From the sequence record OZ035789.1: a stretch of 64,000 bases of DNA, one strand, 5' to 3'. Shown here one piece after another: positions 53,297-56,626 of the stretch (positions are counted from its first letter, which is position 1; the number at the start of each line of letters is the position of its first letter). Source of the DNA: Tequatrovirus BCH953P4. The translations under genes and the position numbers were made by a program. Under the pieces are notes generated by a model that was not told the origin of the DNA, did no database searches, and saw only the letters and a list, made by a program, of their open reading frames with translations.

Positions 53297-53767
53297 TTAA
53301 TCATGTTTCCACACCCCATCGGTATTTGACCAAAGTCGCTGATTATCTGATCCTCGCCACAGCTTTTTGGTCGGAAGATTTTTCTCATACTTCCCATCAA
53401 TAATAACATCAACATATTTAAGCATTTCTAGTTGTTTAATATCTTCAAACTTATATCCTGTCCACAACCAAATGCTTTTATTGGGATAAAGATTTTTAAT
53501 AGTTTGAACCACAGAGTGAATCACGTCTCTGTTATCAGGATAAAGAGGGTCACCTCCGGTTATAGTCAATCCTTCTATATAATCATTATTCAAACATTCA
53601 ATTAATTGTTCTAGTGTTTCACCAGTGAATGGAACACCATTTCTAGCATTCCATGTTGATTTATTATAACACCCTTCGCATTTATGCAAACAACCTGTAA
53701 CGAAAAGAACGACCCTGCATCCAGGGCCATTCACAAAATCACAGGGATAAAATCTATCGTAATTCAT
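53297..53767 (-). CDS. nrdG: Anaerobic ribonucleotide reductase activase NrdG (156 aa)
   Basis: ORF track; radical-SAM CxxxCxxC cluster motif. Confidence 0.88.
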   Translation of the reverse strand: MNYDRFYPCDFVNGPGCRVVLFVTGCLHKCEGCYNKSTWNARNGVPFTGETLEQLIECLNNDYIEGLTITGGDPLYPDNRDVIHSVVQTIKNLYPNKSIWLWTGYKFEDIKQLEMLKYVDVIIDGKYEKNLPTKKLWRGSDNQRLWSNTDGVWKHD

Positions 53768-55037
53768 TGGTGTTTAACCCTATGCATGATTTCTTTGTTT
53801 TTACCGAGATTAAATCCGCGTTCGTTCGGGTTTCCAAGATATCCGCATGTTCTTCTTATGGTATTCATCTTTTTAGGATCAGTTTCTCCACAAATAGAAC
53901 AAACAAATCCGTTTTCAGTAGGAGTCATTTCATGGGTACTTCCGCATGTAAAACATTTATCTACCGGCATGTTAACACCAAAATAATCTAAATGTTGTGC
54001 AGCATAATCCCATACGGCCTCAAGGCCTTTTAAGTTATTTTTCATATCAGGAAGTTCAACATAAGAAATGTGACCACCTGTCGCAATGAAATGATATGGC
54101 GCTTCACGAGAAATCTTTTCAAACGGAGTAATATTTTCTTCTACTGAAACATGGAAACTGTTAGTGTACCAGCCTTTATCGGTAACATCTTTTACACTTC
54201 CATATTTTTCTGTATCAAGTTTACAGAAGCGATAACAAAGGTTTTCAGCAGGAGTCGAATATAAACTAAAAGCAAATCCAGTTCTTTCAGTCCACTGTTT
54301 AAGATGAGCATTCATCTTAGTTAAAATTTCTTGTCCAATATCACGACCGACAAGAATATTCAATTCGTGAATACCAATGTATCCTAGGGACACTGAACTT
54401 CTACCGTTTTTAAATAACTCAATTATGTCGTCATCAGGTTTAAGACGAACCCCGAATGCACCTTCTTGGTAAAGAATAGGAGCAACAGTAGCTTTAACTC
54501 CTTTTAAGGAACTAATTCTACACATCAAAGCTTCAAAACATAAATCCATTCGTTCATTAAATAGCTCAACAAATTTCTGTTCATTGAACTGTGTTCCAAT
54601 ATAAGAATCTAACGCAATGCGAGGAAGATTCAGTGTTACAACACCAAGATTATTACGTCCATCAAGAATTTCATTACCAGTTGAATCTTTCCATACGCTC
54701 AAGAAACTACGGCAACCCATTGGAGAAACAGGAACAGATGAACCAGTGATAGCTTTATTGTTTTTAGCTGAAATAATATCAGGATACATCCTTTTGCTTG
54801 CACACTCTAGAGCAAGCTGCTTAATATCATAGTTCGGATCGTCTTTATAAAGATTAACACCTTCTTCGACGAACATAACAAGCTTAGGAAAAATAGGAGT
54901 TATCCCATCACGACCGAGACCTTTAATACGATTTTTCAGAATTGCTTTCTGAATCATTCGTTCAGTCCAGTCAGTTCCCGTACCAAATGTAATTGTTACA
55001 AAAGGTGTTTGTCCGTTAGAGCTGAAAAGTGTATTTA
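53764..55037 (-). CDS. nrdD: Anaerobic ribonucleotide reductase NrdD, exon 2 (3' splice junction approximate)
   Basis: Track ORF 53764-55095 trimmed at an inferred splice site after G 55038; C-terminal glycyl-radical and Cys-rich region. Confidence 0.6.
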
Positions 55038-55069
55038 CTTCATCATTATATTCAGCATGAGTCGCAAAT

Positions 55070-55840
55070 TCATGCCCGTTTATATGAAACAACAAAATTT
55101 GGATAGTCCATAGATATGCAACGTTCTTTTATAGTGCTAGGATGAAAATTTAGCGCTTTAGCTGCTTCTATATAAGACGTATACTTAATACCGTCAACAA
55201 CCACATATTCAGGAACTTTATGAATAGTAGTCTTAATACTCAAAACAAGAGGATGAGTTTCGACTTCACTTTCAGTGCAATTTAAATATTCCGCTGCTTT
55301 TTTAAAACTTCTAAAAGTTTTATTTTTAAGCTTTATCGATACTTGTTTTTTACTTTTTCGACTATTGATATTATTTTGCACATGTTCCTTAGATCTTCCG
55401 TTTTTAGCATAATATTCAGCTACAGAAGATTTTATATTGTTTTTATGAGATTCGGATAACACTTTACCCTTATGAGCATCTCTTAATTTTTGAATATGTT
55501 CTTCAGTATCCGGATGCTTATAAAACTTTTTACCGCCTATGGATTTATTTAAACATTTTTTGCTATAAAAATATTTACGTATGACCTCTTCTTCATGTTT
55601 TAATGCATCTTTATAACTATCAAATGTTTTTAAAATTATCCATTTAGTAGGTGTATCAGTTTTTAAGCGTTCATTTATATACTTAGATGACGTTGTGTAA
55701 GTTTTCCAGTTTGTGGGCTTGTTTTTAATTGTTCTAAATTTTTTATAACCGATATAAATGTCGCCATTAGAAAACTTAACTAAGTATGTAAATGCGTCTT
55801 TATCTTTTATTTTAGTACAACGTCTTTTTATCCATTTCAT
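55070..55840 (-). CDS. Intron-encoded GIY-YIG homing endonuclease, I-TevII-like (256 aa)
   Basis: ORF track; AFTYLVKF...DIYIGY motif; located in the 3' part of the intron. Confidence 0.8.
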   Translation of the reverse strand: MKWIKRRCTKIKDKDAFTYLVKFSNGDIYIGYKKFRTIKNKPTNWKTYTTSSKYINERLKTDTPTKWIILKTFDSYKDALKHEEEVIRKYFYSKKCLNKSIGGKKFYKHPDTEEHIQKLRDAHKGKVLSESHKNNIKSSVAEYYAKNGRSKEHVQNNINSRKSKKQVSIKLKNKTFRSFKKAAEYLNCTESEVETHPLVLSIKTTIHKVPEYVVVDGIKYTSYIEAAKALNFHPSTIKERCISMDYPNFVVSYKRA

Positions 55841-55869
55841 TGTTTCACCTCGTATTCATAAGATAATCT

Positions 55870-55877
55870 TATTTATA
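55870..55877 (-). promoter_or_regulatory. Late promoter TATAAATA inside the intron, upstream of the endonuclease ORF
   Basis: Plus TATTTATA, about 30 nt upstream of ATG 55840. Confidence 0.6.
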
Positions 55878-56088
55878 CAAGATGACTGCTGCATGTCGCC
55901 ATGCAGATTAGACTATATCTTCATCTTTCGATGCCGGCCGTTTCGAATAGCATTAGCTTCTATTCTACACCGCTACATTCATCACGGTTAGTCGTTAGGC
56001 ATTTAGTTCAAAAGAACATTTAGCACGGGATTGTCTACTAGAGAGGTTCCCCGTTTAGACCGGTTTTACATGAGCCTGAATTAAATTA

Positions 56089-56626
56089 ACTCATACGCCT
56101 GAAACGCGTCGTATACATCTTTTTCTGTTTTAGATTGAGCATAATTCAACGCATCAGCGATTTGCCATTTTTCTGCATCCTCAATATGTTTTGCATAGGT
56201 GCGTTTAACATAAGGAGAAAGTACTTTATCTACATTAGCAAAAGTCGTTCCGCCATATTGGTGAGAAGCAACCTGTGCAGTAATTTGTGCCATAATTGCA
56301 GTAGCAACACCGATTGATTTAGGAGTTTCAATCTGTGCATTACCAAGCTTAAATCCGTTCTCAAGCATTCCTTTTAAATCTACTAAACAGCAATTAGTAA
56401 ATGGAAGAGCAGGGGAATAATCAATATCGTGGAAATGAATAATTCCGCTTTCATGCGCTTTCATAATAAAAGACGGGACCATATTTTTGGCAATGTGTTT
56501 AGACACAATACCAGCCATAAGGTCCCGTTGAGTTGGAAAAACACGAGAATCTTTGTTAGCATTCTCGTTTAAAAGGTCTTTATTAGTTTTATGAATCAAT
56601 CCTTCAATTTCTTTTTCAATTGTCAT
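56089..56626 (-). CDS. nrdD: Anaerobic ribonucleotide reductase NrdD, exon 1 (5' splice junction approximate)
   Basis: Track ORF 56081-56626; 5' splice site placed after the U of GAGU by analogy with T4. Confidence 0.6.

Follow-up and report, generated by a model that had tools for sequence, protein, structure and literature searches.

A divergent T4 nrdD-type group I intron with a putative late-controlled homing endonuclease in Tequatrovirus BCH953P4

The closest described systems to the element analysed here are the group I introns of phage T4, namely the nrdD (sunY) intron with its endonuclease I-TevII and the td intron with I-TevI, together with the free-standing Seg-type GIY-YIG endonucleases of T4-like phages. 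A review of the T4 mobile elements (PMC2988022) describes I-TevII as an active GIY-YIG enzyme and reports mapped middle or late promoters for the three T4 intron endonucleases, located inside host-gene transcription units that are expressed earlier. According to the same review, a stable RNA structure hides the ribosome-binding site on long transcripts, and late transcripts start too far downstream for this structure; for T4, an operator similar to the homing site has also been proposed to mediate autorepression (PMC2988022).

With these systems as reference, we analysed the interrupted anaerobic ribonucleotide reductase gene (nrdD) of Tequatrovirus BCH953P4 within a stretch of 64,000 nucleotides of record OZ035789.1, referred to here as the window. 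Every gene in the nrdD part of the window lies on the minus strand, and coordinates are given in that direction. The reading that we favour, with a probability of roughly 0.88, is that nrdD carries a mobile group I intron of the T4 nrdD (sunY) type with a homing endonuclease under late control. Alignment with the T4 nrdD intron, which the earlier note on this DNA had proposed as a check, gave the same site and the same layout at about 66% DNA identity overall and about 75% in the core. Both introns sit in the same host gene at the same insertion point (after GAGU, before AUGAAG), and in both the ribozyme core comes first, P2 is missing, P7.1 and P7.2 are present and the ORF follows P9 on its 3′ side. 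Both also have a short hairpin before the 3′ splice site and a TATAAATA motif within a hairpin that sequesters the ribosome-binding site. The endonucleases are homologous and almost equal in size (256 versus 258 aa). The introns differ in length (1045 nt in BCH953P4 versus 1033 nt in T4) and in the sequences of P6, P7.2, P8 and the 3′ hairpin. The T4 td intron is similar in belonging to the phage introns of subgroup IA and in having a GIY-YIG endonuclease controlled by a late promoter and a hairpin (PMC2988022), but it occupies a different host gene and its ORF interrupts the core, whereas the BCH953P4 ORF follows P9. I-TevI itself has no detectable sequence similarity to the BCH953P4 endonuclease, a profile comparison of the two giving no meaningful match. 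The Seg-type enzymes are similar in that the N-terminal domain of the BCH953P4 protein fits the SegE_GIY-YIG model, and Seg-like genes of other phages gave weak tblastn matches at 28-34% identity; these genes are however intergenic and have no ribozyme, unlike the BCH953P4 gene, which is embedded in an intron of the self-splicing type.

The host gene appears as two listed ORFs, 56626-56081 matching Pfam NRDD positions 1-141 and 55095-53764 matching NRDD positions 145-562 plus the glycyl-radical domain, with the endonuclease VII gene before them and nrdG after. The description of a nrdD split into two ORFs about 1.05 kb apart thus stands, the exact interval being 1045 nt. Junctions were placed by alignment with phage T4 (NC_000866), by translation and by comparison with intronless alleles. 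Exon 1 (56626-56089, minus strand) comprises codons 1-179 and the first base of codon 180, and ends in GCG UAU GAG U; exon 2 (55043-53764, minus strand) begins AU GAA GUA AAU and, in the spliced translation, supplies NRDD positions 145-562 and the Gly_radical domain. The TTG at 55095, although listed as the start of the second ORF, is not a real start. The intron (56088-55044, minus strand) runs over 1045 nt from U1 at 56088 to a terminal G at 55044, limits that are supported by the RF00028 match, the T4 alignment and the intronless alleles. Its excision in silico yields a 605-aa NrdD that is identical to T4 NrdD at 603 of 605 residues, and the same junction rule applied to T4 returns the published 1033-nt intron and a 605-aa NrdD. 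Intronless phages, RB3 among them, aligned in one piece to a 400-nt query across the spliced junction, and about 620 records cover at least 80% of this query in one place. The predicted ligated junction reads GCGUAUGAGU joined to AUGAAGUAAAU (in RNA, GAGU joined to AUGAAG), and the intronless RB3 junction, read directly, is GCTTATGAAT followed by ATGAAGTAAAT. The assignment is unambiguous, because agreement with the intronless sequence is lost when the two junctions are shifted together by a single base, whichever way. The earlier note had placed the 5′ junction exactly (56088), but its 3′ junction at 55038 was 6 nt off, the correct position being 55044. A junction at 55038 is in frame, yet it gives AYELNTL, two residues fewer than the AYEYEVNTL of T4 and of the intronless alleles. 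In GenBank records of related phages, nrdD is given as two separate CDSs; the database records of these phages therefore contain an annotation error to be fixed, and a joined nrdD CDS is called for.

The homing endonuclease gene (55840-55070, minus strand) encodes 256 aa plus a stop codon 3′ of the core. Its product is a homologue of T4 I-TevII (56% identity over the full length, E = 1e-101), and the two share FTYLV...DIYIG, E83/E84 and N98. A GIY-YIG domain spans about residues 9-100 and a NUMOD1 module residues 171-193; PF19835 (SegE_GIY-YIG) matches residues 9-86 at 26.6 bits, a narrow margin over the cut-off of 25, and the ORF also matches Pfam NUMOD1 and PHROG 314 (homing endonuclease). 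These results agree with the earlier description of the ORF as an I-TevII-like GIY-YIG endonuclease. GenBank labels for it are 'homing endonuclease' or 'intron-associated endonuclease 2'. Searches of PDB sequences and of NCBIfam with the endonuclease returned no matches. A structure model built from a three-sequence alignment was poor (pLDDT 57) and confident only at residues about 170-200, the NUMOD1 region, with an N-terminal order of secondary structures compatible with a GIY-YIG fold. Foldseek found nothing significant with this model (best E = 1.2, UPF0213 protein 1zg2), and its weak, non-significant top matches included the I-TevI DNA-binding domain, I-HmuI and the Slx1-Slx4 nuclease. 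Between the BCH953P4 endonuclease and I-TevII, dS is 1.47 and dN/dS is 0.25, the latter being similar in all three segments of the protein (the catalytic, linker and DNA-binding thirds). This substitution pattern indicates that the protein has been under purifying selection. For nrdD itself, compared with T4, dS is 0.16 and dN/dS 0.019. The contrast between a dS of 1.47 in the endonuclease and 0.16 in the host gene implies that the intron lineages separated long before the genomes that now carry them diverged.

The possibility that BCH953P4 simply carries the T4 element was considered and set aside. At about 66% nucleotide and 56% amino acid identity, with the endonuclease in a separate protein cluster (P0001 versus P0002), the intron is better described as a sister lineage of the T4 intron. 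Phage records contain two endonuclease classes, one of 43 members at 95-100% identity to the BCH953P4 protein and one of about 24 at about 56%, with all others at 34% or below. The second class includes T4, its laboratory derivatives, PST, RB55, RB59 and others. A search of 5.8 billion proteins returned only the same two clusters, with 64 and 38 member sequences, and neither this collection nor the phage records contained intermediates between the two lineages. The full-length nrdD intron is present in about 67 records and missing from about 620, and the BCH953P4 type is the commoner nrdD intron lineage in the databases searched (about 43 versus about 24 records). We found no description of this divergent lineage in the literature searched, although the T-even survey of Sandegren and Sjoberg (2004) might mention it. 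Uncharacterised in the literature that we found, the BCH953P4-type endonuclease would give this target site a second natural enzyme and should be useful for comparisons of GIY-YIG target recognition.

Recent movement of the intron is suggested by its near-identity across phages with more divergent host genes. In Shigella phage SP21535 the intron is 100% identical, and in several others 99.6-99.9%. Relative to SP21535, BCH953P4 has no mismatches in the intron (0/1045), 19 of 538 in exon 1 and 35 of about 1212 in exon 2, the nearest mismatches being 14 nt from the intron on the upstream side and 28 nt on the downstream side. At the rate of the flanks, about 32 intron mismatches would be expected, and the probability of finding none under uniform divergence is about 1e-14. 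An identical intron within exons that have diverged by about 3% points to recent homing with short co-conversion tracts. A different explanation is that the intron still splices and its endonuclease is no longer active, the element having been inherited vertically or spread by general recombination, so that the near-identity would reflect recent common descent of the segment. Degenerate copies do occur, and T4 itself carries a defective I-TevIII (PMC2988022). Escherichia phage 215Ecol030PP (PP328843, 2201-2679) carries this intron in a 479-nt form, shortened by deletion, that keeps nt 1-293 and 852-1045, lacks nt 294-851 and with them most of the endonuclease gene, and has AAGAC at both ends of the deletion. 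In phages F1 and 236Ecol005PP the endonuclease ORF is in two pieces, apparently through a frameshift, and a frameshift is apparent in FN too. We nevertheless consider loss of activity in BCH953P4 improbable. At least 10 phages carry the full-length ORF intact and with 100% identity, and its dN/dS is 0.25. Common descent of a segment also fits poorly with exon divergence of about 3% that resumes close to an unchanged intron (14 nt before it and 28 nt after it), since such a sharply bounded identity block is what endonuclease-driven homing with short co-conversion tracts would leave. Taken together, these records document the homing cycle cleanly, with invasion, decay by deletion or frameshift, and old introns in young host genes all represented.

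A T4-type late promoter motif, TATAAATA, is located at 55877-55870 on the minus strand, which is the coding strand, 29 nt upstream of the endonuclease ATG. The earlier note had reported the motif at this place, correctly. It aligns with the late-promoter motif of the T4 intron, except for a 9-nt insertion in the hairpin loop. In the whole window, counting both strands, TATAAATA occurs 4 times, against 10.8 +/- 3.5 expected from shuffles; this under-representation makes a chance occurrence at this exact spot less likely. The scarcity is also consistent with avoidance of stray late promoters among early and middle genes. The motif overlaps a hairpin (55885-55845, minus strand) predicted to sequester the ribosome-binding site, in which the Shine-Dalgarno sequence GAGGUG is paired with UCAUCUUGUAU and the 5′ arm overlaps the start of TATAAATA. 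The stem has 11 bp, formed by UCAUCUUGUAU with AUACGAGGUGA, the strand that contains the Shine-Dalgarno sequence, and its fold energy of -19.4 kcal/mol (z = -4.9) was matched by 0 of 200 shuffles. The T4 counterpart has a different 5′ arm and an 8-bp stem at -17.4 kcal/mol. By analogy with T4, the endonuclease is predicted to be expressed late and independently of its host gene. An 8-mer can arise by chance in AT-rich DNA, and TATAAATA might accordingly be fortuitous, with the endonuclease made from read-through nrdD transcripts and not from a late promoter of its own. This is a distinctly improbable account, given that the motif is depleted in the window (4 versus 10.8 expected), lies on the correct strand, 29 nt before the ATG, in alignment with a T4 late promoter that has mapped transcripts (PMC2988022), and overlaps the 5′ arm of a sequestering hairpin that both lineages have kept despite sequence change. 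Alongside the late-promoter reading, the operator proposed for T4 prompts mention of the best match to the RB3 homing site inside the intron, 16 of 20 positions in the region of the ribosome-binding site (intron nt 227-246), which is where the proposal places the T4 operator. It is a weak lead only, because 8 of 60 shuffles do equally well.

The claim of a group I core between the two nrdD ORFs is borne out by Rfam, and the outcome depended on how the scan was run. A scan of the whole 64-kb window returned no Rfam match to the intron, at either the gathering threshold or the E-value threshold. A local scan of 54900-56300 alone (1.4 kb) found RF00028, the group I catalytic intron family, over the full model (1-253) at 56120-55889 on the minus strand, with 70.1 bits against a cut-off of 50 (E = 2e-17). 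Because the bit score is independent of how much sequence is scanned, we read the whole-window negatives as filter losses. The check by Rfam models that the earlier note had suggested was therefore negative at one scale and positive at the other, and its proposed refutation, that covariance models find no group I fold, is open to a false negative. As a caution on methods, an ORF-bearing group I intron that is easily found by a local scan can escape a covariance scan of the whole window. First-pass scans could likewise overlook other ORF-bearing introns.

The ends of the RF00028 match were rejected as intron ends, as the 5′ end lies 32 nt inside exon 1. This arises because the P1 of the model was fitted to an exon hairpin, the real P1 being AUGAGU/GCUCAU. 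The exon stretch 56120-56089 can form a hairpin (UAUACG ... CGUAUG) just before the 5′ splice site, and within it BCH953P4 differs from other carriers at the third codon positions 56117, 56108, 56105 and 56102. The ribozyme core (56088-55889, minus strand), with its helices located in the sequence and in the Rfam alignment, consists of the P1 loop with the internal guide sequence (IGS, 56075-56070), P3, P4, P5, P6, P7, P7.1, P7.2, P8 and P9 (55906-55889), with P2 absent and P7.1 and P7.2 both present. Judged by sequence and predicted fold, this is a subgroup IA intron of the T4 nrdD (sunY) type at the nrdD codon used in T4. P1 is formed by AUGAGU of the 5′ exon and GCUCAU of the intron (nt 14-19); the final base of exon 1, U56089, makes the U.G pair with the G at nt 14. 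The G at 56091 completes the pairing AUGAGU/GCUCAU. This base, the third of the Glu codon at the 5′ splice site, gives GAG-T in all intron carriers examined and GAA-T in intronless RB3. An intronless target with GAA-T would consequently have a mismatched P1 unless the flank is co-converted.

At the 3′ end, exon 2 bases 2-5 (UGAA of AUGAAG) can pair as P10 with intron UUCA (nt 9-12; 56080-56077), beside the guide sequence. The last three bases of the intron are A-U-G (55046-55044, minus strand), with G55044 as the terminal G, and the putative P9.0 would consist of AU (55046-55045) with AU of J7/9 (55908-55907). P9.0 pairing was first described in the T4 nrdD (sunY) intron, as a passage of PMC11417360 records in citing Michel et al. 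(1990). Between BCH953P4 (AU/AU) and T4 (UU/AA) the putative P9.0 shows one compensatory change. A 3′-terminal hairpin, GCAUGA/UCAUGC (55075-55055, minus strand), contains the endonuclease stop codon in its 5′ arm, and four of its six pairs are changed on both sides relative to GUAGAG/CUCUAC in T4. Within the core, pairs with compensatory changes relative to T4 number two in P3, two in P4, three in P6 and two in P7.1, with P7 and P9 invariant; P7.2 and P8 have new sequences and lengths and are still hairpins. A long-range P9.1, joining the stretch after P9 to the 3′ tail, is a candidate further pairing in this comparison. The fold and this covariation, which is a comparison of two lineages only (BCH953P4 type versus T4), support a working ribozyme. 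That the element is instead a splicing-dead remnant and nrdD, a gene dispensable in aerobic laboratory growth, a split pseudogene is scarcely credible: the negative whole-window covariance scans and the two-CDS annotation of nrdD in relatives would suit such a remnant, but the full-length RF00028 match stands 20 bits over the cut-off, every core helix is kept with compensatory changes and with the U.G pair, terminal G, putative P9.0 and P10 in place, and both exons are open, with 603 of 605 residues identical to T4 NrdD and an nrdD dN/dS of 0.019.

Two stretches of the core are identical to the T4 td intron, namely intron nt 30-71 in the P4-P5 region (56059-56018; 42 of 42 positions) and nt 84-100 in J6/7-P7 (56005-55989; 17 of 17). 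Over the nt 30-71 stretch the T4 nrdD intron matches td at 34 of 42 positions. These identities suggest either that co-resident td and nrdD introns have exchanged sequence by gene conversion or that conservation is unusually strong here. We offer as a tentative and rather unlikely proposal that the intron is a td/nrdD chimera, with P4-P5 and J6/7-P7 copied by gene conversion, and, separately, that its diverged endonuclease recognises or cuts the nrdD homing site in another manner than I-TevII. If its specificity does differ from that of I-TevII, the element would be a second, independent invader of the same nrdD site. I-TevII makes its cut within exon 2, slightly more than ten bases past the insertion site.

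For the BCH953P4 lineage we infer splicing, cleavage activity and promoter use by analogy with T4, and for a spliced, mobile intron with late endonuclease expression the following sequence of events may be proposed. Early and middle nrdD transcripts would contain the intron, whose 5′ 200 nt would fold as the ribozyme core. The U.G pair of P1 would define the 5′ splice site, and the terminal G, P9.0 and P10 would define the 3′ splice site, which lies 1045 nt further on; ligation of the exons would give the 605-aa NrdD. On these long transcripts the hairpin would hide the ribosome-binding site of the endonuclease. Late transcription would begin just downstream of the internal TATAAATA, and as the resulting RNA would be without the 5′ arm of the hairpin, the GIY-YIG endonuclease could then be translated. 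In mixed infections the enzyme would cut intronless nrdD alleles, and repair would copy the intron into them (homing).

Beyond the T4 introns, the core (nt 14-203) has matches at 68-84% in unrelated phages, namely Campylobacter, Vequintavirus-like, JSE, Aeromonas, Serratia and Vibrio phages; the matches in Vibrio phages F93 and F95 are close to an HNH endonuclease gene adjoining nrdD. Related IA cores are widespread in phage genomes, and often unannotated. Free-standing endonuclease genes use the junction between nrdD and nrdG as a variable landing site, which is empty in BCH953P4. Here the nrdD stop and the nrdG start overlap directly (53764-53767) with no gene between them. At the same junction T4 has the HNH endonuclease gene mobC, RB3 a segD-like gene and SP21535 an 830-nt ORF.
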